A DNA stretch of 64,000 bases. Source: a phage. This document shows, piece after piece, positions 19,436 through 48,087 of this stretch; positions within the stretch are counted from its first letter, which is position 1; the number at the start of each line of letters is the position of its first letter. The notes under the pieces are model-generated. The model saw nothing but the letters and a program-made list of their open reading frames with translations, was not told the origin of the DNA and did not search any database. The DNA is taken from sequence record OZ346187.1; one strand, given 5' to 3'. Position numbers and translations under genes: made by a program.

Positions 19436-19466
19436 AGTAAAAAGAGGGGCCCAAGCCCCCCTCTTT
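19436..19466 (-). terminator. rho-independent terminator (GGGGC-CCAA-GCCCC core stem, T-run on minus strand)
   Basis: GC stem-loop flanked by A-run/T-run between ORFs 19471 and 19415. Confidence 0.55.
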
Positions 19467-19804: not shown

Positions 19805-20056
19805 TTAACGTTCTACAAAAATACCGTTCAGTTCAATAACCAGGAATTTCTGGTCTTCACTATCGTCTCGTGCCAGCACCTCACAGACGTATCGGTCATC
19901 CCCATCATCATCGCAGTAAAATACAAGACTGAGGACTTTATCATGGTAAACCTTCGCAACTACCGCCTCGTAAGTATTGCCGATTGTGAATCCAAGATAA
20001 TCTCCGATGCATTTGACAACAACATGGTCTCCAGCATTTAAGTCAATCTTCGTCAT
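19805..20056 (-). CDS. hypothetical protein
   Basis: ORF-track 19805-20122; internal ATG at 20056 with RBS is the more likely start. Confidence 0.5.
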   Translation of the reverse strand: MTKIDLNAGDHVVVKCIGDYLGFTIGNTYEAVVAKVYHDKVLSLVFYCDDDGDDRYVCEVLARDDSEDQKFLVIELNGIFVER

Positions 20057-20475: not shown

Positions 20476-20564
20476 ATAAGCACCTTACTGAAATACAAGA
20501 CACAGTGTTAAGGTTACTGACCAGCAAATAATTAACAGTGCCGTTGCAACCTTGGCAAGATTTA

Positions 20565-20852
20565 TCATAGTGCCTCTAAGATTTCATATCCTTCGGGTCG
20601 GAATACAAGCCACTCCGTGGCTCCGTTTGGTCGATACGCTTTATACAGAACAACCTGGTCTCGGCACATGCACATGGCTACATAGTTTTCATCCACACCT
20701 GCAGCCTGCATTGCATCTTCTTCTCCGGCAACTGCTTTGCTTACAACTTCCTTGGTAGGCAGGTGTGCGATCAGCTCGTCACCATCATTAATTCCAAAAT
20801 GGCTGAGTTCGCCGTTGGTATCTTTAATCTTAATCTTAACCAGATCTTTCAT
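20565..20852 (-). CDS. hypothetical small acidic protein
   Basis: ORF-track ORF; MK-start, acidic composition. Confidence 0.5.
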   Translation of the reverse strand: MKDLVKIKIKDTNGELSHFGINDGDELIAHLPTKEVVSKAVAGEEDAMQAAGVDENYVAMCMCRDQVVLYKAYRPNGATEWLVFRPEGYEILEAL

Positions 20853-21181
20853 TAGTCTTCCCCCAGGTTCAAAGGTCCTAAGATTTCATATGCCAGATTA
20901 GAAGTTACAAGAGGGTCTTCTGCGTCTTTAGTATTATACCACCCGTGAATAACCAGAGTCCCACTTTGTTTCATGTCCAACTGGAACTCTTCTGCCGTTT
21001 CCTCATCCAGCTCCAAGATTTCCATAAGGTATTTGATGTTAGGGAGGTATGCAGCTGTTACAGTCCCCTCTACCAGACCTTCAGGCCAACCTACATCTGG
21101 ATGACAAGTAGGAACCAGATTGGTCAGCTTAATGGTGTACGCTTTTTCTGCACGAGCCTTCAGTAACGGGTCAATCTTCAT
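20852..21181 (-). CDS. hypothetical protein
   Basis: ORF-track ORF. Confidence 0.5.
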   Translation of the reverse strand: MKIDPLLKARAEKAYTIKLTNLVPTCHPDVGWPEGLVEGTVTAAYLPNIKYLMEILELDEETAEEFQLDMKQSGTLVIHGWYNTKDAEDPLVTSNLAYEILGPLNLGED

Positions 21182-21531
21182 TATTCGTCCTCCTCTTCGG
21201 TACCTGCTTCCAGTAATAAGTTAAGAATATCTTCTGCACAAGGCTCATAGAACTCTTGGCCTTCATTATCGATGATTTTGTAGTCATCTCCGCGAATAAT
21301 CAGAGGATCACTCTCAAAATTATCGAGACCTTTAACAACGACAACACGATCGATTGCCATCATTGTAAGAACTTTATCGACATCTTCCTCTGCTACACCA
21401 TACTGCAGCAGAATGTCTTTGGTAGGAGGAACAGCATCCACCACAACACCGTTACCAAAACCTTCCGGTAAGTTAGCTAAAATATCTTCCGGAACCACAC
21501 TAACATCAAAACCAGTAATTTCTACTTTCAT
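21181..21531 (-). CDS. hypothetical acidic protein
   Basis: ORF; starts MKVEITG, acidic C-terminus. Confidence 0.5.
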   Translation of the reverse strand: MKVEITGFDVSVVPEDILANLPEGFGNGVVVDAVPPTKDILLQYGVAEEDVDKVLTMMAIDRVVVVKGLDNFESDPLIIRGDDYKIIDNEGQEFYEPCAEDILNLLLEAGTEEEDE

Positions 21532-21792
21532 TTACAGCACCTCTTCGTCAACTACTTCATAAAAATGGCCTGGGATTGCAATAGCGTTCTCACCTTCACC
21601 TACAAACACAGTTCCGTCAAGAATCAACATCATAAGAGTTTCTGGAATATCCTCTTCCTGAACGTTGCCAAAACCTTTAATCAGCTCGTAGGTTGGAAGA
21701 TTTACCTCTAAGATGTCACCATCTTTAGAGCGGAAATCAACACCATCCTGAATCTCTGCCATTTCAAGGTTTTTCAGTTTAATCTTCATCAA
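21532..21792 (-). CDS. hypothetical small acidic protein
   Basis: ORF; starts MMKIKLK, ends VVDEEVL. Confidence 0.5.
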   Translation of the reverse strand: MMKIKLKNLEMAEIQDGVDFRSKDGDILEVNLPTYELIKGFGNVQEEDIPETLMMLILDGTVFVGEGENAIAIPGHFYEVVDEEVL

Positions 21793-21868
21793 TCAGTCTC
21801 CCGTCTTGTTAAGATGAAGGTATTATTTCACACAGGGTTGGCGTTGTCAACACCTGTGTGCAAGAAAA

Positions 21869-22264
21869 TTACTGAAACAGTGCGGATAAATTACCTTCTG
21901 GTGGGAACTTATCTGCCAAAAACGGTGTTAGCACAGTAGCCTTCTGAAGATCTGGGGTCCACTCGTTGTTCAGAACATCCCAGTAGTACGCAATGTTGCT
22001 GTGTGGGTGCCGCATTACGAACTTTTTCCCTTCGTAGTCATCTGAAACCTCTACAGAAGAAATAACAACAGAATCTTCAAGGGTTTCTTCATAGAAAGAT
22101 CCACCTTCAAATTTCCAACGAGATGCAAGAGCTCCTGCCTTGAACGCTGCAGATAACGGACTGTCTGCAAGAACATACATTTCTTGCACTCTGTCGCTGC
22201 GATCTTTGCTTCTTACGTTGTATACAGTATCTGAGCTATACTCAACACGGTATAGGCTTACCAT
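21869..22264 (-). CDS. hypothetical protein (paralog of 24071-24469)
   Basis: Shares HP.S...YW...W.P pattern with ORF 24071-24469. Confidence 0.5.
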   Translation of the reverse strand: MVSLYRVEYSSDTVYNVRSKDRSDRVQEMYVLADSPLSAAFKAGALASRWKFEGGSFYEETLEDSVVISSVEVSDDYEGKKFVMRHPHSNIAYYWDVLNNEWTPDLQKATVLTPFLADKFPPEGNLSALFQ

Positions 22265-22623
22265 TACCGCACCTCCTCAATAACTTCCACATCTGAGCCC
22301 ACCACAAATGCAAAAGGACAGGTTTCATGAAAGACATCCGGATCGCCGCCAAGCTTGCTAACAATCTCTCCACCACTAATAAACACAAGCTCACCGATAT
22401 TCATCAGATTGCTGAAATAGTACCCATAATGATTAAAGAATGCAGCAGGGTCAGGTAGACTAGTAGCCTCAAGCACTACATCAGTTGAGGTTACTTTCTT
22501 ATCATAACCTCTCGCCTTTTGAGATGCAAGATCTGCAGAATCCTCAGGCGACCGGAGATGCACAGGAATTGTTTCACCAATAAAGCGTACTTTCATATTA
22601 TCACCCAACAACCATAGCTTCAA
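22264..22623 (-). CDS. hypothetical protein
   Basis: ORF-track ORF. Confidence 0.5.
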   Translation of the reverse strand: MKLWLLGDNMKVRFIGETIPVHLRSPEDSADLASQKARGYDKKVTSTDVVLEATSLPDPAAFFNHYGYYFSNLMNIGELVFISGGEIVSKLGGDPDVFHETCPFAFVVGSDVEVIEEVR

Positions 22624-22864
22624 AAGGGGTCATGAACGAATAAACGGCATCATCATCTGCTTCAGGGAATGCTCCCAAAGACTTCATGTCTGAGCCCTTG
22701 ACAAATACAAGGTTTTGATCAAAAGCTTCTTGAGGATCAATCCGATACATATTTCGTAGAATATCGCCTACCTCCTCATCAAGAGGTGAGTATGCTGTGC
22801 ACGTTTTTCCGATCAAGCTTTGAGAATCAGGGTATCCACCTGAAGTTTTAAAATAAACAATCAT
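22601..22864 (-). CDS. hypothetical protein
   Basis: ORF-track ORF. Confidence 0.45.
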   Translation of the reverse strand: MIVYFKTSGGYPDSQSLIGKTCTAYSPLDEEVGDILRNMYRIDPQEAFDQNLVFVKGSDMKSLGAFPEADDDAVYSFMTPFEAMVVG

Positions 22865-22955
22865 ATAGTATCACCTCTGGTAAGAGATTGGGATTCCTTT
22901 CCCACAAATAATTACAAACCTTCCTTATCGAGGAAGTATGCTAATCCAAGCAGGA

Positions 22956-23225
22956 TTATTCCTCTACAATCTCATACACATCCGGAGTTACAATCAACTC
23001 TTCTCCGTTACCCGGTGCAACAAACACCACCATGCCTTCAGGTGTGTGCTTTTTAGCCATCTCGATAACATCTTCTCGCAGAGCTGGCTCCATCAGATCA
23101 AAACCTTCACCCAGGGCATCACGAACCACCTTCATATAGTCAACTGGTTGTGCTTCGACAATCATACCTTCAACCAGTCCACAGTTTTTGTCTGCCAGCT
23201 CAGTTTTGAATAATTTAATTTTCAT
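22956..23225 (-). CDS. hypothetical small acidic protein
   Basis: Starts MKIKLFK, ends EIVEE. Confidence 0.5.
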   Translation of the reverse strand: MKIKLFKTELADKNCGLVEGMIVEAQPVDYMKVVRDALGEGFDLMEPALREDVIEMAKKHTPEGMVVFVAPGNGEELIVTPDVYEIVEE

Positions 23226-23362
23226 TTAGAGGTCTCCTCAATTATTTGATATTAATAGCCGTAACCTAACACATTAACTACAACTGCGATTGCAAACATA
23301 ATTTCAAAGCATGCAATCTCTACATTTGGAACTAATTTCTTGATCACACCCATTGTAGCACC

Positions 23363-23680
23363 TCATTCTCTAAAGTCAATCTTTACTTTGCCTTTCCCCT
23401 TACCTTTCTTTCCACCGCATTTAGCCAGTTGACGTGCTGCAACATCTACCATACGGTCAGTTGCCTCGTAAGCATCACTGCCTTTAGCTTTGGCAATAAC
23501 TTCTTTTCCAGAATTGTCAAAAATGAACGCCATAACTTCCTGGTGATCATTTTCAACTTTTACACTCACACGTGCATAGTTGGCAGAGGGATGCAAACGC
23601 TCCAGCTTAGACATTTTGTGGGAAATGAAAGACACCATACCTTCAGTGATTTCTACGTTGCCAGTGATTTCAATTTGCAT
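23363..23680 (-). CDS. hpf: ribosome hibernation promoting factor / RaiA-family protein
   Basis: MQIEITGNVEITEGM...VSVKVEND...AKAKGSDAYEATDRMVDVAARQLAK aligns by eye with E. coli HPF (MQLNITGNNVEITEAL...ASAEGQDMYAAIDGLIDKLARQL). Confidence 0.7.
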   Translation of the reverse strand: MQIEITGNVEITEGMVSFISHKMSKLERLHPSANYARVSVKVENDHQEVMAFIFDNSGKEVIAKAKGSDAYEATDRMVDVAARQLAKCGGKKGKGKGKVKIDFRE

Positions 23681-23762
23681 AACGTGTTCCTTTTAAAGAA
23701 GAGGGAACCAAACCCTCTTTGAAAACAATGATACTAAATCTGAAGCGTTGTGTCAACAGTTT

Positions 23763-24053
23763 TTACAGATTGTTGTCGATAGTTTTTAAAATATCCACAG
23801 CAAGATCTGCCATTTTTCGAACATACTCTGCAAACTCAACAGGATCCTTGATCAAAGAATTCACAGGGTCGTACCCTAGAGCGTTCAAAATGGCTGCAGC
23901 ATCTACAACCTTCTCATCATTTGCGAAGATCTCTCCATCAAACTTGTAGGTCCATTTTGAGTCAATCTTGGCAGGGAATGATTGGTCAACGCTTGTTACA
24001 CCATCCTTTTTAAACGCTCCGGTGTTATCAGTGTCTAGAACTAAATCCATCAT
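23763..24053 (-). CDS. hypothetical protein
   Basis: ORF-track ORF. Confidence 0.5.
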   Translation of the reverse strand: MMDLVLDTDNTGAFKKDGVTSVDQSFPAKIDSKWTYKFDGEIFANDEKVVDAAAILNALGYDPVNSLIKDPVEFAEYVRKMADLAVDILKTIDNNL

Positions 24054-24070
24054 GTTAGTACCTCACCGTT

Positions 24071-24469
24071 TCAGTTTAGCTTTTCTTCAACAACCCCATA
24101 GCTCGGGACAGAGTCAAGAGCTTTCTGGTTTAAAAGTGGTGTAGCAGAATCTGCAAACGGTGTCCAAGTTTTTGTTCTGGCATTCCAGTAATGCTTCACT
24201 CTGGAATCTGGATGCACTATAACAAAAACTTTTTCACTTGTCAACACATTAATTTCTTCTACACCCTTGCTGATAATTTCTCCGTCATAGCCACCAGTCT
24301 GGTATCCTTCGTACCAGGTTCTTGCATATGCATAGCCAGCCTGCCAGCATGCAGCCTCCTCCGAGGTGGAGACTACGTAGAAGTCTTTCTCAAATTCTGG
24401 GATACGCCCTTGCTTTACGCTCCAAGCTCCGCGAATTTTCATTGTAACTTTGAACAGTTTATTTTTCAC
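24071..24469 (-). CDS. hypothetical protein (paralog of 21869-22264)
   Basis: Shared motif pattern with ORF 21869-22264. Confidence 0.5.
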   Translation of the reverse strand: MKNKLFKVTMKIRGAWSVKQGRIPEFEKDFYVVSTSEEAACWQAGYAYARTWYEGYQTGGYDGEIISKGVEEINVLTSEKVFVIVHPDSRVKHYWNARTKTWTPFADSATPLLNQKALDSVPSYGVVEEKLN

Positions 24470-24481
24470 AACGGTTACCCA

Positions 24482-24736
24482 TCACAGCTCTACAATCTCT
24501 GCATCTGACCCTGCCCCAAAGGCATAATAGGATTCTTCCCCGAAATAATATTCCGGTGCACCAGCAGCGATCAGGTCTGATCCCAAGATAAACACCACGT
24601 TGTGGCCTACATAACTGTGATGTTGCCGCACAGGATCATCCCACGGCAACCCTTCAAAGTATACCGCAGGAACGACCTTTCCCTTCAGGAAGGATTGTCC
24701 CAAGTAGACGTTAGAATCAAGAATTTTAACCTTCAT
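24482..24736 (-). CDS. small acidic protein, MKVK-family paralog
   Basis: MKVKILD start, GSDLIAAGA motif, acidic C-terminus EIVEL. Confidence 0.5.
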   Translation of the reverse strand: MKVKILDSNVYLGQSFLKGKVVPAVYFEGLPWDDPVRQHHSYVGHNVVFILGSDLIAAGAPEYYFGEESYYAFGAGSDAEIVEL

Positions 24737-24953
24737 TCTCGTCCTCCACTATCTCTACATCCTCACCAAGGGCAAAGTTGTAGGTCCACTGGCTGTCAAA
24801 GCAGTCCTGAGATGCACCAGCGGAAATAAGATCTGCACCTTTTATTTTTAAAAGGTCAGGATAATCTTCGTTAGGGATAGCGGTAAACACTTTCCCCACT
24901 AAGGGCTCCTGACCAATATAGAAGCTTGAATCTAAAACTTTAACTTTCATCAA
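24726..24953 (-). CDS. small acidic protein, MKVK-family paralog
   Basis: MMKVKVLD start, KGADLISAGA motif, EIVEDENEG tail. Confidence 0.5.
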   Translation of the reverse strand: MMKVKVLDSSFYIGQEPLVGKVFTAIPNEDYPDLLKIKGADLISAGASQDCFDSQWTYNFALGEDVEIVEDENEG

Positions 24954-25237
24954 CGGTCTCCCTCAGGCGGTTGTGGGACGTAAACACTGTTACGAATATC
25001 GTCAGCAGTGTAGTAATAAGTGGTTCCAACCCTATCTCGGGCTGCAATGTACTCTGCTATACCAATAAGTGCCATTGATTTGGTGGCGTATCTTCCCCAC
25101 TCGTTAGCTCCCCAGTAGAATTTAGACCAGTAGGGAATAATACCGAACAAATATACCTTTTGACGAACTTCCCAGTAAGTGCCTTTTCCGACAAGTTTAA
25201 ACTCTACTTCACTACTGTTAATCTTTTTCATTATCAA
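24950..25237 (-). CDS. hypothetical protein
   Basis: ORF-track ORF. Confidence 0.5.
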   Translation of the reverse strand: MIMKKINSSEVEFKLVGKGTYWEVRQKVYLFGIIPYWSKFYWGANEWGRYATKSMALIGIAEYIAARDRVGTTYYYTADDIRNSVYVPQPPEGDR

Positions 25238-25530
25238 TCTCCCTCTACCGTGGTCGGATTGTCAGTAAGAAATTGAGCATTGGCTGGAGGCACGCCTGAC
25301 ATTTTCCACACAACCATAAGTTTGTAACCAGGAACTCTATTAAGTGCAGATCGAGTAGAGTTTGTGCACGTATACTTTCGCTTTCCAAACCCGTTCTCCA
25401 TCATAATCCAGTACCCAGTATCTTTGTCACCAGGTATCGGTAGACCACCTTCATCAACCCACTGAATGGACCACGGCACGATGGCTACAGCTTTATATTT
25501 AAACTTTTTAAACCACTCAAAAAGTTTCAT
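25234..25530 (-). CDS. hypothetical protein
   Basis: ORF-track ORF. Confidence 0.5.
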   Translation of the reverse strand: MKLFEWFKKFKYKAVAIVPWSIQWVDEGGLPIPGDKDTGYWIMMENGFGKRKYTCTNSTRSALNRVPGYKLMVVWKMSGVPPANAQFLTDNPTTVEGD

Positions 25531-25625
25531 AATTCAGCCTCGCATAGACATAATCACTATAAACAGGCAAACAATGAATCCGAATGCCACGCCACCCATA
25601 AACGTTAATATTGATGCAATCATAG

Positions 25626-25811
25626 TCAATCAGCCTCGCTTGGCAACTCTTCTACCTTAACATGCCGAAAAGTGTTACCGTAATGGTTGATCCATGACAT
25701 CAGCTCGCTTTCTTGCTCTTCCTCTGGGATGAACTCTCGAATGCTGACAAGTTTTAAGAAAACCCAATCACAATCTGCACCCATTCTACCAGACAGGCAA
25801 TAGTGCTTCAT
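25626..25811 (-). CDS. hypothetical protein
   Basis: ORF-track ORF. Confidence 0.4.
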   Translation of the reverse strand: MKHYCLSGRMGADCDWVFLKLVSIREFIPEEEQESELMSWINHYGNTFRHVKVEELPSEAD

Positions 25812-25829
25812 AAAACCCCCCCACCTGGT

Positions 25830-26024
25830 TTAGAATATTGCTTCTTCCATTGCACCTGAGAGCAACAAAGAGGTGATCTGGCTAACATTCATCTCAGACT
25901 CTACTTCCTCCCCTTTGAAAGGTTCGCGGCAGAATAGGACTGTTTCAGGACTTTTACTTCGAACAATATAATACAAATCATTCAATGTGTTGTAGTAATA
26001 AGTGTTAAAACGTAAGTTTTTCAT
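25830..26024 (-). CDS. hypothetical protein
   Basis: ORF-track ORF. Confidence 0.4.
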   Translation of the reverse strand: MKNLRFNTYYYNTLNDLYYIVRSKSPETVLFCREPFKGEEVESEMNVSQITSLLLSGAMEEAIF

Positions 26025-26308
26025 TTTCTAGTCCCCTTCTTAGATTTTTGTGTAGAAACGCTTTCTGCAATACGAGACAAACGTTCTTCTGAAGCCTTGC
26101 CTATTCCAGGTTTTTTGAGTGGGTTATCTTTATGACCACAATCCAATTGGATATTGGATACCTCTCCAACCTTGTAAGTCAATTCTAGCAAAAGGTTGTC
26201 GTCCTTGTCAAATGTTCTTACGATAAATTTTTTATCGTTCTCCTGAACTTCGTATCGGGTACCCGCAGTATACAACATGGTGCCATCCGCATAGGATATC
26301 CAGATCAT
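26021..26308 (-). CDS. hypothetical protein
   Basis: ORF-track ORF. Confidence 0.45.
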   Translation of the reverse strand: MIWISYADGTMLYTAGTRYEVQENDKKFIVRTFDKDDNLLLELTYKVGEVSNIQLDCGHKDNPLKKPGIGKASEERLSRIAESVSTQKSKKGTRK

Positions 26309-26652
26309 TGAACCTCCTTCTGCTGCAACAGCATTAACTCTTTGTTGGAGATTTTTACTGCTGTTTTTATTGTTCCATCTTCACGAAACCACGACCAGAA
26401 CTCTACAGTGTCCCCACTGTCAAGCAAAGCATACCCGTGGTAGAAGTCTTTGTCCTTAGACAGTTTCTCATCTATGTCTGCATCGACACATTCGTGATCC
26501 ATAGCATTTTGCCTGAATGCATCGGTTATACCAATGCACGCCTTGCTCTCAAGACTGGTATATCCGATATCTTTTAATTCAGTTTCCCAAGTCCAGTACC
26601 CTATAAAAGCTAAAACAGCTACCCACATTAATAACGTTTTAATCTTTGGCAT
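26305..26652 (-). CDS. putative secreted or membrane-anchored protein
   Basis: N-terminal hydrophobic segment LLMWVAVLAFIGYWTW. Confidence 0.45.
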   Translation of the reverse strand: MPKIKTLLMWVAVLAFIGYWTWETELKDIGYTSLESKACIGITDAFRQNAMDHECVDADIDEKLSKDKDFYHGYALLDSGDTVEFWSWFREDGTIKTAVKISNKELMLLQQKEVQ

Positions 26653-26714
26653 TCTCTCTACCTCTTTCTTAGTTTATTTCACTATGGCACATCCTTTGTG
26701 CCATATCTCAACCA

Positions 26715-27176
26715 CTACTTAAATAGTAGTCCAAAATAGTGCAAAATTAACAGAAGTTGAACTACACCTAGTGCAACGGCGAGTATGTTAATCTTAGAAT
26801 CGAAAAACTTCTTAACTTTTACTCTAAAAGGTTCCTTAATGTCCTTTACGATCCTATTTATAGATGATTTCATATCCCTGATTACCATCCTAAACATTAG
26901 AGACGGATCTTCCTTCTCTGTAATAGAATCGAAAACATACTCTCTTCGGTCATAAGGACCTCCAGATCTGCGTATTAACCTCTCCACAGAGACCTCGTAC
27001 GACACACCTGTAACGTAATCATCTATGATAAGTAGTGACGGGTCTTTATCGTCCAAGGGTATTAAAGTTATCTTTCCAGATTTTGTTAAAATTTCTCCTT
27101 TTTCAAGCAAGGTGTACCAATGCTCTCTACCAAGATTGTTGAGGCACGTTTTTACATATTTAACAAACATCGTCAC
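26715..27176 (-). CDS. putative C-terminally membrane-anchored protein
   Basis: C-terminal hydrophobic helix ILAVALGVVQLLLILHYFGLLF. Confidence 0.45.
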   Translation of the reverse strand: MTMFVKYVKTCLNNLGREHWYTLLEKGEILTKSGKITLIPLDDKDPSLLIIDDYVTGVSYEVSVERLIRRSGGPYDRREYVFDSITEKEDPSLMFRMVIRDMKSSINRIVKDIKEPFRVKVKKFFDSKINILAVALGVVQLLLILHYFGLLFK

Positions 27177-27376
27177 CCCTCATAGCACGTCTGATATAAC
27201 CACTCTATGAAATCTTGATACCATTCGCCCTCTGAGCGCTCCGTAGGCCAATAATCTTCACCCTCTCGTGCATTAAAATCTGAGTATTCAACTTTCCACT
27301 CCTTTACCAGCTCGTGGAGAAGGTTTTCAGCCTGCTCTAAAGATTTATTTTTTGCCATTGCTGTCTCCTTTTTCAA
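27173..27376 (-). CDS. hypothetical protein
   Basis: ORF-track ORF. Confidence 0.4.
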   Translation of the reverse strand: MKKETAMAKNKSLEQAENLLHELVKEWKVEYSDFNAREGEDYWPTERSEGEWYQDFIEWLYQTCYEG

Positions 27377-27577
27377 GATAGTTATACATCAGAACTGCAC
27401 CACCTAAGATGGCTACCAGTAACAATATCCCAGATAGCATCTCAATAAACATGGCTTGAAACACTGGAAGGTCTCCCTAAATTAACGCACCATTTTAAAT
27501 ACATGCTCTTTTCCCATAAAGGTGCCTGGCTAAGATCTGCGTAGAACGCAATCTCTTTAAGAACAGTATAGATAGTT

Positions 27578-27805
27578 TTAGGTGCGGTCTCCATCCCTAC
27601 TCTCCTTCCTGATATTCTTGTAGTAATCAACTAGGCACATTATTACGATGAAGATAACAACAGGCCAAAAAGGTGCAGCAGTGATGATGGTGATAAAATC
27701 ATCAAACTTCACCCTTCGTCTGGACACGATGCATACACCTGTCAAGAATACCGCTGTTATAACGGACATTACCAGGTAACCTATTAGCACAACATTTATA
27801 CTCAT
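27578..27805 (-). CDS. putative small membrane protein
   Basis: ORF-track 27578-27895; internal ATG at 27805 gives a protein with two hydrophobic helices. Confidence 0.4.
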   Translation of the reverse strand: MSINVVLIGYLVMSVITAVFLTGVCIVSRRRVKFDDFITIITAAPFWPVVIFIVIMCLVDYYKNIRKESRDGDRT

Positions 27806-27836
27806 TGGTCCTCCCCTTTGTAGGTTAAATTGTATA

Positions 27837-28370
27837 CTACAAATGGTCGCTGAGGGTGTCAAGAAAATTATCCCGTTCTTTCTCAGAGTTTTCATGTGTG
27901 TAGCTGAAAAACATATCGAGAATAACCTTATTGATATATTCCAGCTCCTCTGTGTTCAGATGCTTAGCAGGATCTACAATGACATCCCAAATATCATACA
28001 GACCACACTCATGATACCCATAACGCCACTCAATTGTCAAGCTGAGCGGCAAATCTTTACCGTCACAAACAACCTTCCATCTACATATGTTGGTATCTGG
28101 TCGTACCTGTGCACGGTACACCTGTACAAAATCCAATTTGAATTTGAGGTACTCGTCATACAATTTAAGCACAAAGCTCTCGATTTGTGGAGACACTTTT
28201 GCAGCAAACTGTGCGTATTTGTACTTGCACTGGATGATCTTTCTGCGTTTTGCAGTTAAATTTTTTGCCGCCAGTTGTTCTTCAGTGTATCTCCACCTAC
28301 GATCAACAAACGCAACAGGGTCTTTGTCCCCATAGAGGTCTTCCCAGTTAATCAGAAGCATACCTGTCAC
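27837..28370 (-). CDS. hypothetical protein
   Basis: ORF-track ORF. Confidence 0.5.
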   Translation of the reverse strand: MTGMLLINWEDLYGDKDPVAFVDRRWRYTEEQLAAKNLTAKRRKIIQCKYKYAQFAAKVSPQIESFVLKLYDEYLKFKLDFVQVYRAQVRPDTNICRWKVVCDGKDLPLSLTIEWRYGYHECGLYDIWDVIVDPAKHLNTEELEYINKVILDMFFSYTHENSEKERDNFLDTLSDHL

Positions 28371-28600
28371 TCCTCCACAACTTCAAGGCCTTTACCGCCT
28401 CGCTCTGGCAGATTACTTAAAGATAGGTAATACATATAATCAGGAGAGATCCTGCCAGACTCTGCACCTGCAGCTAGTAAATCCTTCCCTTTAACCAGGA
28501 CAACATTCTCGTTTGCAGATAGCCGTTTTGCTTCCACAATTTTACCAACACAGTCAACCAAGGAAGGGTACCCTAAATCTGTAAGAAATTTAACTTTCAT
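28367..28600 (-). CDS. small acidic protein, MKVK-family paralog
   Basis: MKVKFLTD start, KGKDLLAAGA motif, ends LEVVEE. Confidence 0.5.
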   Translation of the reverse strand: MKVKFLTDLGYPSLVDCVGKIVEAKRLSANENVVLVKGKDLLAAGAESGRISPDYMYYLSLSNLPERGGKGLEVVEE

Positions 28601-28637
28601 GCTACCTCCTACCTACCATCCCTGGTAAGATAAATTA

Positions 28638-29036
28638 TTACTGAACAGAGCGCGGTGCTGGGAAGGATAACTCTTCTAAAGAGAAGATTTCATTTCCTAC
28701 CACCCAAGTTGCTGGGTCATCTGGATCAACAGGTTGGATAATCATTACCTCATCAGCCTCGCACACACGTTTCCCACCCATAGTAGCGTCAGCCACTAAC
28801 ATACGCGGCTCTTCAGAAATGCACAGGTAGCCACCTCGGCCCACTGTTCCTTCCACGGGATCCTGCCCTTTGACCACAATGAATACCTTCTCTCCTGTGG
28901 CGATATTACTTTTCACACTAACAGTTTGACCAACTTTAGATGTACCGATCTTGGTGGCTTCAAACATTAAATCCCGAATTACTGTTGCATAGTTGCCGGA
29001 CACTTTCTTACCTTCTTTAGTAATCTCAATCTTCAT
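28638..29036 (-). CDS. hypothetical protein
   Basis: ORF-track ORF. Confidence 0.5.
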   Translation of the reverse strand: MKIEITKEGKKVSGNYATVIRDLMFEATKIGTSKVGQTVSVKSNIATGEKVFIVVKGQDPVEGTVGRGGYLCISEEPRMLVADATMGGKRVCEADEVMIIQPVDPDDPATWVVGNEIFSLEELSFPAPRSVQ

Positions 29037-47177: not shown

Positions 47178-47758
47178 TAAGCATCGGCGAGATCGGCCTT
47201 ACCTTGTACCAAATTGATCCCATCTAGGAACCCAGGTTCAGATACTTCGCAGGCCTTAACCATCAACTTTTTATCCATCGTAACAGGTTTCTTCACAGTA
47301 TGCTCTTTACCTGTCTTTTTGTCAAGCTTTTTCTTCTCCTCAAAAGCAAGTTCCTCAGGAAGATGACTACGAGCAAACTTTTTGGCAGTTGTTGGTGTCA
47401 CGGTGTGGACCTTAAACAGGCCGTCATTTTCACAATCAGCTAAAGCATCCCAAAGCATAACTTCAAGACCGTAAAACAACCCAGCCAGTTCGCGTGTGGC
47501 ATCCCCGCGTGATCCAAAGGAAAGCCCTTCCATAACCACGGTGTCAACGCCGTGCGTGTGGATGTAATATCTGACCTGTTTGCAGATCCAGTCAATACGC
47601 TCAGCAGCTGTTGCAAAAGAAACCGTCCCTGGTTTCTTCTCTTTTGCAGATGAGCTTTGAGTTCGTAACACAACCTTATGAACAGGCTTTCCATCGTCCC
47701 ATACAACGCAAGCTGTGTGTGTCAACGACTGGTCTATGGATAATAGACGCTCTCTCAT
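47129..47758 (-). CDS. RuvC-like Holliday junction resolvase
   Basis: LLSIDQSLTHTACVVWDD and TVVMEGLSFG resemble RuvC catalytic motifs. Confidence 0.55.
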   Translation of the reverse strand: MRERLLSIDQSLTHTACVVWDDGKPVHKVVLRTQSSSAKEKKPGTVSFATAAERIDWICKQVRYYIHTHGVDTVVMEGLSFGSRGDATRELAGLFYGLEVMLWDALADCENDGLFKVHTVTPTTAKKFARSHLPEELAFEEKKKLDKKTGKEHTVKKPVTMDKKLMVKACEVSEPGFLDGINLVQGKADLADAYWIGRAHLEGLSQSVK

Positions 47759-48087
47759 GCTTCCTCGTCCTCCTCTCCTTCATCAGGAGCATAAGCCTTA
47801 TCTTTGAACAAGACGAGAGAGCAAAGCTTAACATCTGTTTCCACACTGGTGAACATGCATAACCGCTCGCCCTCAATCAGCTCACAATCCTCTTTTAAAA
47901 CAGCAGACCATACACGGTCATCTGCGTAATCATCCGTGTACAGGATGTATGAAATGGTGTCATCTTCATACAACCGCCACATACCTGTGGCAACAACGAA
48001 TGTATTTTTTGTTTTAAGTGTCCCTGTTGTGTGATCATCCTCAAAAACAGCTTCCATAATTGCGTTATCTACAGCATTTTTAGTCAT
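47755..48087 (-). CDS. hypothetical acidic protein
   Basis: ORF-track ORF. Confidence 0.45.
   Translation of the reverse strand: MTKNAVDNAIMEAVFEDDHTTGTLKTKNTFVVATGMWRLYEDDTISYILYTDDYADDRVWSAVLKEDCELIEGERLCMFTSVETDVKLCSLVLFKDKAYAPDEGEEDEEA

Follow-up and report, generated by a model that had tools for sequence, protein, structure and literature searches.

The window analysed here comprises 64,000 nucleotides (nt) of phage DNA (sequence record OZ346187.1; one strand, 5' to 3'), and its region 20565-28600 holds ten minus-strand genes, labelled A to J, that fall into two families of paralogues. Family 1 consists of A, B, C, E and F, and family 2 of D, G, H, I and J (Table 1). All ten encode soluble, acidic, single-domain proteins of 74-116 amino acids (aa). 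The modelled member of each family (B and D, respectively) is an SH3-like beta-barrel of five strands, as predicted by AlphaFold. Escherichia phage AlexBoehm (Bas56, Vequintavirus) is 99.6% identical to the window over the 8.2 kilobases (kb) from 20500 to 28700, which identifies the window as that of an rV5-like Vequintavirus. In AlexBoehm the region 20565-28600 carries 28 annotated genes, all described as hypothetical except a ribosome hibernation factor and a 'putative glycosidase'. The two families account for ten of these 28 genes, and for 12 when a pair of phrog_7379 genes (X1 and X2, see below) is added. A sequence-only reading of the window had proposed one expanded family of small acidic proteins, with A, B, C and D sharing an MK(V/I)K start and with G, H and J as looser relatives. 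The open reading frames (ORFs) that it named are present on the minus strand, where it had placed them, and are annotated coding sequences in AlexBoehm.

Family 1

In an all-against-all blastp comparison of the minus-strand ORFs, A and B are 41% identical over 83 aa (E = 3.6e-14), B matches C at E = 9e-6, and A matches C at E = 3e-3. The three proteins are matched end to end by phrog_5009, a family with no function attached, at E ≤ 4e-32, and on this sequence evidence A, B and C are true paralogues. Run against all 675 six-frame ORFs of the window, a profile of A, B and C retrieved F (E = 9.5e-7) and gene E (E = 2.8e-5); the next ORF followed at E = 2, and D stood at E = 5. Gene E was also recovered at E = 6.7e-7 by a 30-sequence family-1 profile that includes distant homologues and leaves gene E out, D scoring 7.3. 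With phrog_5009 the match of F is weak, and D, E, G, H, I and J have none at E ≤ 0.01. Among existing families phrog_5009 alone takes in part of the present grouping. Profile-profile comparison with hhalign, using alignments enriched with orthologues, links the members with probabilities of 99.6% (A-B), 99.1% (B-C), 96.3% (A-E), 95.3% (A-C), 91.3% (A-F), 90% (B-E) and 88% (B-F and C-F). When each gene was left out of its own family model, it ranked first among the roughly 670 ORFs (E-values in Table 1). The pattern common to the family is MKVK..GY..G..VGK.V.A ... G.DL..AGA ... Y.F ... E.EIVEE.

Family 2 and its separation from family 1

When G, H and J were made into a profile, the highest-scoring ORFs outside it were D (E = 3e-4) and I (E = 0.013). 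In the leave-one-out searches with hidden Markov models (HMMs) every family-2 gene likewise ranked first among about 670 ORFs, with the best non-member at E ≥ 0.5. With divergent orthologues included, hhalign joins G to H (94.7%, E = 6e-8) and H to I (93.8%, E = 1.8e-7). The links of D and J within the family reach 22-36% over full-length alignments, those of J to D, G, H and I being 34-36%. PHROGs divides family 2 into five single-gene families, and gene E and F also stand there each alone.

D gave no blastp match to A, B or C, reached E = 5-7 with the family-1 HMM, and stayed below 5% in hhalign. It does not carry G.DL..AGA after strand 3 and has in common with family 1 only the MKIK start and the YEIVEE end. 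A single family that includes D is thus rejected on the HMM and hhalign results. Of the four-member family proposed earlier, A, B and C therefore stand, supported by blastp, hhalign and phrog_5009, and D does not belong to it. The looser relatives G, H and J are paralogues, but of D, and so form the second family according to the leave-one-out HMMs and hhalign. The earlier membership list was also incomplete; the profile searches added gene E and F to family 1 and I to family 2.

In hhalign every cross-family pair stayed below 5%, and the merged family profiles reached 9% in local mode (over 27 N-terminal columns) and 15% in global mode. Homology of the two families is unproven by sequence; a very distant homology is possible, given the common predicted fold and the end motifs.

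That the resemblance is only compositional or positional (a Met-Lys start and a Glu-rich end), with no real family behind it, is almost certainly wrong. It is true that in B, E, G and H the codons for the Glu-Glu end (GAGGAG type) also supply the Shine-Dalgarno sequence of the gene that follows, which overlaps or abuts them, so that one set of bases encodes both the protein end and the translational coupling. The link between families 1 and 2, moreover, is not significant. Within each family, however, the similarity is full-length and highly significant. Among 2000 composition-preserving shuffles none reached the real leave-one-out HMM score for any of the ten genes (real scores 18.6-67.7 bits, best shuffle 8-12 bits), and since the shuffles never do so, the similarity within each family is not compositional. 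This comparison was the one on which the sequence-only reading had staked its family, and similarity beyond composition was borne out. That distant family-1 homologues in unrelated phages keep the E(I/V)VEE-type end marks it as first of all a feature of the protein.

Predicted structure

The AlphaFold model of B, with a mean predicted local distance difference test score (pLDDT) of 92.2, has strands at residues 2-5, 21-23, 33-37, 56-61 and 65-69 and, in addition, a short helix that spans residues 38-43. For D the model (pLDDT 93.8) places the strands at 2-5, 22-27, 66-69, 76-79 and 84-88, with three helices (residues 30-60) between strands 2 and 3. In the models strand 1 corresponds to the MK(V/I)K start and strand 5 to the E(I/V)VEE-type end. 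The G-x-D-L-x-x-A-G-A motif of family 1 forms a helix and loop that join strands 3 and 4; it is specific to this family, and family 2 has a tight hairpin at that place. The sequence GFDLMEPA of D, which resembles the motif, lies within the helical insert of the model and not at the position of the family-1 motif. Inserts between strands 2 and 3 occur in family 2 (helical in the D model) and in A, E and F of family 1 as well, and the paralogues therefore differ most at this position.

No Pfam family, SH3 and KOW included, reached the gathering threshold for any of the ten proteins, the sub-threshold hits being chance matches. Sequence searches of Pfam, NCBIfam and the PDB, with single proteins and with profiles, gave no match.

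Gene organization

B-A, F-E and G-H-I-J are adjacent genes, D lies beside F, and C is 3.4 kb off. The overlap of B and A is 11 nt long, 4 nt separate F from E, gene E overlaps X2 by 1 nt, as do H-I and I-J, and G and H abut. The tandem expansion described earlier is thus a genuine local expansion, but one of two families and only partly tandem.

Table 1. Coordinates and properties of the ten paralogues and of associated features in the window
Feature	Coordinates	Strand	Family	Length (aa)	rV5 counterpart	PHROG match	Leave-one-out E	Remarks
C	28367-28600	-	1	77	ORF127	phrog_5009 (E = 8.3e-36)	1.4e-8	
B	24726-24950	-	1	74	ORF140	phrog_5009 (E = 1.3e-36)	4.1e-18	
A	24482-24736	-	1	84	ORF141	phrog_5009 (E = 3.6e-32)	3.3e-21	14-residue insert between strands 2 and 3
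F	22601-22864	-	1	87	ORF147	phrog_13920; phrog_5009 (E = 1.2e-4, weak)	4.1e-5	
E	22264-22596	-	1	110	ORF148	phrog_13661	3.9e-6	Divergent; two insertions; C-terminal 42 aa give the best family match
D	22956-23225	-	2	89	ORF146	phrog_11868	1.3e-3	Most divergent member of family 2
G	21532-21789	-	2	85	ORF150		3.5e-7	First gene of the G-H-I-J run
H	21181-21531	-	2	116	ORF151		1.9e-8	Net charge -22
I	20852-21181	-	2	109	ORF152		1.5e-3	
J	20565-20852	-	2	95	ORF153 + ORF154 (split there)		4e-5	
X1	24071-24442	-				phrog_7379		Function unknown
X2	21869-22264	-				phrog_7379		Function unknown
Ribosome hibernation factor	23363-23680	-						Phage-encoded RaiA homologue
'Putative glycosidase'	27837-28370	-				phrog_13467 (unknown function)		
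Sigma-70-like promoter	21822-21850	-			P150 (annotated)			TTGACA-17-AATAAT, extended -10 TG; 11/12 consensus; in the 79-nt gap upstream of G
Sigma-70-like promoter	23728-23756	-			P144 (annotated)			11/12 consensus; upstream of the hibernation-factor gene
Terminator-like hairpin with T-rich tail	22920-22936	-						Directly downstream of D; pattern scan
Dual Glu codon/Shine-Dalgarno site (B)	24737-24760	-						
Dual Glu codon/Shine-Dalgarno site (E)	22265-22290	-						
Dual Glu codon/Shine-Dalgarno site (G)	21532-21556	-						
Dual Glu codon/Shine-Dalgarno site (H)	21182-21205	-						

In the rV5 reference (L008, NC_011041, 8899-9169) J corresponds to two overlapping short ORFs, ORF153 and ORF154, and just 58 aa align; the split reflects either a frameshift in the type phage or an error in its sequencing. 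Within the leftward block, some 1.1 kb downstream of J, a strong bidirectional terminator-like hairpin of nine pairs was found at 19441-19466 (both strands), AAAGAGGGG...CCCCTCTTT.

The ten genes lie in a leftward (minus-strand) block of approximately 18-56 kb, as delimited by guanine-cytosine skew. The same leftward non-structural unit encodes the ribosome hibernation factor, a methyltransferase, a ClpP-like protease, PhoH and an anaerobic ribonucleotide reductase. In phage rV5 genes 82-163 are described as one unit together with DNA-metabolism genes, the promoters there are of the sigma-70 type only, and the text on virion mass spectrometry names gp133 alone from this block (PMC3606486), which speaks for the ten paralogues not being virion proteins. 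The hibernation-factor gene, identified by Ribosomal_S30AE (PF02482, E = 1.8e-12), sits mid-cluster among the members of both families with its own sigma-70-like promoter, an arrangement that is syntenic in divergent relatives. The ClpP-like protease gene is located about 2-3 kb upstream and is syntenic in these relatives as well.

The gene annotated in AlexBoehm as 'putative glycosidase' is without Pfam support (E ≤ 0.1), and its sole match is phrog_13467. Two further minus-strand genes of the window, at 19805-20056 and 47755-48087, may also be paralogues, though the evidence is weak (70 aa aligned at 33% identity, E = 5e-4), and are assigned to the separate PHROGs 12851 and 7583.

Conservation and duplication

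At least 90% identity to the stretch 20500-28700 was found in 122 phage records, with coverage of at least 80% in 115 of them. Eighteen of the records with this identity are titled 'Campylobacter phage' (host C. jejuni), although the sequence is that of an E. coli rV5-like phage; this points to wrong host labels or to contaminating phages in that series of submissions.

In two divergent relatives (L009 and L010) all ten genes are present in the same order as 1:1 syntenic orthologues whose proteins are 29-76% identical. The corresponding values are 68-69% for ClpP and 85-88% for the methyltransferase, and neighbouring genes range from 31% to 90%. Since the ten genes are kept 1:1 and diverge like their neighbours, the expansions are old and each copy is individually maintained. 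Judged from these sequences, the locus is not a hypervariable or fast-turnover accessory island. Between X2 and G both relatives carry an extra gene (PF27050, Phage_P22_Y8K6; 12867-13163 in L009, 11092-11388 in L010) that the window lacks.

X1 and X2 form a third paralogue pair, their products being 28% identical across 119 aa (E = 3e-9). A family-1 pair immediately precedes each of them, giving the arrangements B-A-X1 and F-E-X2, and an old segmental duplication of a three-gene cassette may be put forward as a weak idea. It agrees with A-E being the best cross pair and with the paralogy of X1 and X2; against it, A and B are mutually closest, and no orthologue of X1 could be detected at the corresponding place in either divergent relative.

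Occurrence in other phages

For both families, word-indexed searches led almost exclusively to rV5-like contigs about 135 kb long. An exhaustive family-1 profile search yielded 34 matches at E ≤ 1e-3 among 1.84 billion representative proteins. Most of the 34 are full-length proteins of 63-87 aa with the consensus MKVKLLNDGGY.G...VGKVVEA...G.DLI.AGA...F...Y.F...E.EIVEE, and one (P0108) has two domains in tandem. In a 42.5 kb phage a family-1 gene is flanked by genes for a primase-polymerase and an AAA_24 ATPase, and the same phage has a second, weak copy; on another phage contig one is found near AAA_24 and DnaB. In a lambdoid prophage of E. coli, found in 13 of 5426 complete genomes, family 1 is placed between the antiterminator Q and the holin; it follows a Q-like antiterminator in Escherichia phage MagusPhagus, lies between gp32 and frd in Citrobacter phage Merlin, and is present in two copies in Proteus phage RS51pmB. 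In Vibrio phage CHOED (L014, 3057-3909) the annotated 219-aa HNH endonuclease CHOED_040 ends in 72 residues that constitute a complete family-1 domain with its own Met148 (E = 1.4e-17), probably a homing-endonuclease insertion that is read through in frame. The gene next to it, CHOED_039, is a second family-1 copy (HMM E = 1.2e-7). Multiple copies of family 1 are a recurring trait, and the number of five is specific to Vequintavirus. Of family 2, searches for H and D yielded Vequintavirus records exclusively (118-119).

Among metagenomic proteins, P0014 and P0017 are 70-aa chimeras in which residues 1-46 of B are joined to the C-terminus of A at DLI.AGA, and P0028 joins a prophage-type N-terminus to the C-terminus of B. 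These could be products of unequal crossover and phage-prophage exchange, or assembly artefacts. A B/A fusion gene is absent from 118 cultured-phage records (best identity 79.7%).

Acidity and the anti-defence reading

The ten proteins have isoelectric points (pI) of 4.05-5.4 and, H excepted, net charges of -1 to -13. The earlier description as small and acidic holds, but it is not distinctive; 47% of the small proteins of the leftward block have a pI below 5, and acidity was rejected as a distinguishing mark because it is the background of the block. An anti-defence role, possibly as DNA mimics that block restriction enzymes or DNA-targeting immunity and that were duplicated under arms-race pressure, is unlikely. 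The proteins are small, acidic, multi-copy and of unknown function, and they are made from a non-structural block. H adds its high charge and an acidic tail, yet C has a net charge of only -1 and a pI of 5.4, within a block in which acidity is the norm. The sequence-only reading had looked to structure prediction for DNA-mimic features; instead of the very high negative charge and elongated, DNA-like surface of Ocr- or ArdA-type mimics, the models of B and D predict a compact, globular barrel. The folds of Ocr and ArdA are unlike that barrel. Family 1 is patchy among unrelated phages and one prophage and occurs in accessory-gene neighbourhoods, like many anti-defence genes, whereas in the divergent relatives and about 120 genomes the ten genes are fixed and syntenic rather than variable. 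In the BASEL study the Vequintavirinae were exceptionally susceptible to restriction-modification systems and seemed to be without effective protection (PMC8594841), which argues against anti-restriction. Because of this restriction sensitivity and the globular barrel fold, an Ocr-like DNA-mimic role is unlikely, and a tempting but unsupported label is thereby removed. Counter-defence of another kind, for example the inhibition of abortive-infection systems, is improbable too.

Proposed function

We tentatively favour the reading that the ten proteins may be small protein-binding modules that derive their specificity from a variable loop face, are expressed from the non-structural unit and were subfunctionalised long ago. 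Sigma-70-type promoters would drive the ten genes before or during replication, as the gene layout and consensus promoters suggest. Each paralogue would be a small module that binds a host or phage protein, and the partner would be set by the face formed by the variable RT-loop and the strand 2-3 loop, which is the ligand face in canonical SH3 domains. If each module has its own partner, the expansion would represent old subfunctionalisation in the modulation of host physiology, and not an arms-race cassette or a set of DNA mimics. The occurrence of family 1 elsewhere among small accessory genes, beside replication or recombination genes or after antiterminator Q, is in line with this.

Several points weigh against the binding-module reading. 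The literature searched does not mention these paralogues and reports neither a function nor interactions nor expression for any of them. The rV5 genome paper (PMC3606486) leaves these genes unmentioned and does not contain 'paralog', 'duplicat' or 'gene famil', and no Vequintavirus transcriptome was found. The argument from the ligand face is an analogy, and SH3-like barrels also bind nucleic acids (KOW, the integrase C-terminal domain, OapB). The timing of expression is inferred from layout and from promoter matches, and such matches are not enriched in this stretch (36 found, 28 ± 6.7 expected in shuffled sequence). A role in replicating or assembling the phage itself would account for the high conservation within the genus just as well.

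If the barrels bound nucleic acid or the ribosome, as KOW or ribosomal-protein barrels do, they could act with the neighbouring hibernation factor in reprogramming translation or transcription. The Ribosomal_S30AE gene in mid-cluster, syntenic in relatives, speaks for this, but adjacency to it is the sole link, and family-1 genes elsewhere are without such a neighbour. The acidic pI of all ten argues against nucleic-acid binding, the barrels that bind nucleic acid being basic, and no KOW or other Pfam match was obtained. This role is decidedly unlikely.

It is highly unlikely that the paralogues are substrate adaptors for the co-encoded ClpP-like protease, each delivering a different host protein for degradation. 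The adaptor SspB uses a small beta-barrel domain. A preprint describes a phage adaptor-like protein for ClpCP in SPO1 (bioRxiv 10.1101/569657). The ClpP-like gene belongs to the same leftward unit and keeps its place in relatives, but the argument is purely one of neighbourhood, no ClpP gene accompanies family 1 in other phages, and no unfoldase-binding tail motif was identified. A wider version of the adaptor reading is very unlikely: the ten barrels would be modular specificity adaptors in which the variable strand 2-3 insert captures a distinct host protein, which is neutralised (e.g., sensors of abortive infection, a defence to which large phages are susceptible) or passed to the ClpP-like protease. 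In this version the products of the stop/start-coupled genes G-H-I-J might form a hetero-oligomer. If true, it would represent a phage-encoded, paralogue-diversified targeting system on an SH3-like scaffold.

Should the paralogues bind distinct host proteins, as modules of the favoured kind could, they would offer a compact set of new tools for modulating the host. Large virulent phages hold dozens of small unannotated genes, and here ten 'hypothetical proteins' become two fold-defined families and a tractable set. New in this respect are the extension of phrog_5009 to the five-member family 1 and the definition of family 2, which PHROGs divides. The present value is that of a useful annotation rather than a surprise, and is modest until a partner or phenotype is found.

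Comparison with known systems

T7 Ocr, ArdA and T4 Arn resemble the ten proteins in being small acidic phage proteins made outside the structural modules. Their folds are unlike the modelled barrels, however, the charge density is much lower in most of the ten, and the phage group is restriction-sensitive. A canonical SH3 domain is without the 18-residue conserved helix and loop that family 1 has between strands 3 and 4. Family 2 differs from the SH3-like folds (eukaryotic SH3, the KOW domains of Spt5/NusG, PsaE and the retroviral integrase C-terminal domain) by a helical insert of about 38 residues between strands 2 and 3. The same predicted fold is found in BFVD among small phage proteins (Shigella phage CM1, Citrobacter phage Merlin, Cronobacter phage CS01, Shigella phage Sf20, RB49 and others) with TM-scores of 0.7-0.83. 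These neighbours are all uncharacterised, and the Merlin protein is also a sequence homologue (HMM E = 1e-7). The two families are a well-delimited new example of a common phenomenon, namely families of small accessory-protein paralogues in large phages, built here on a generic SH3-like scaffold.

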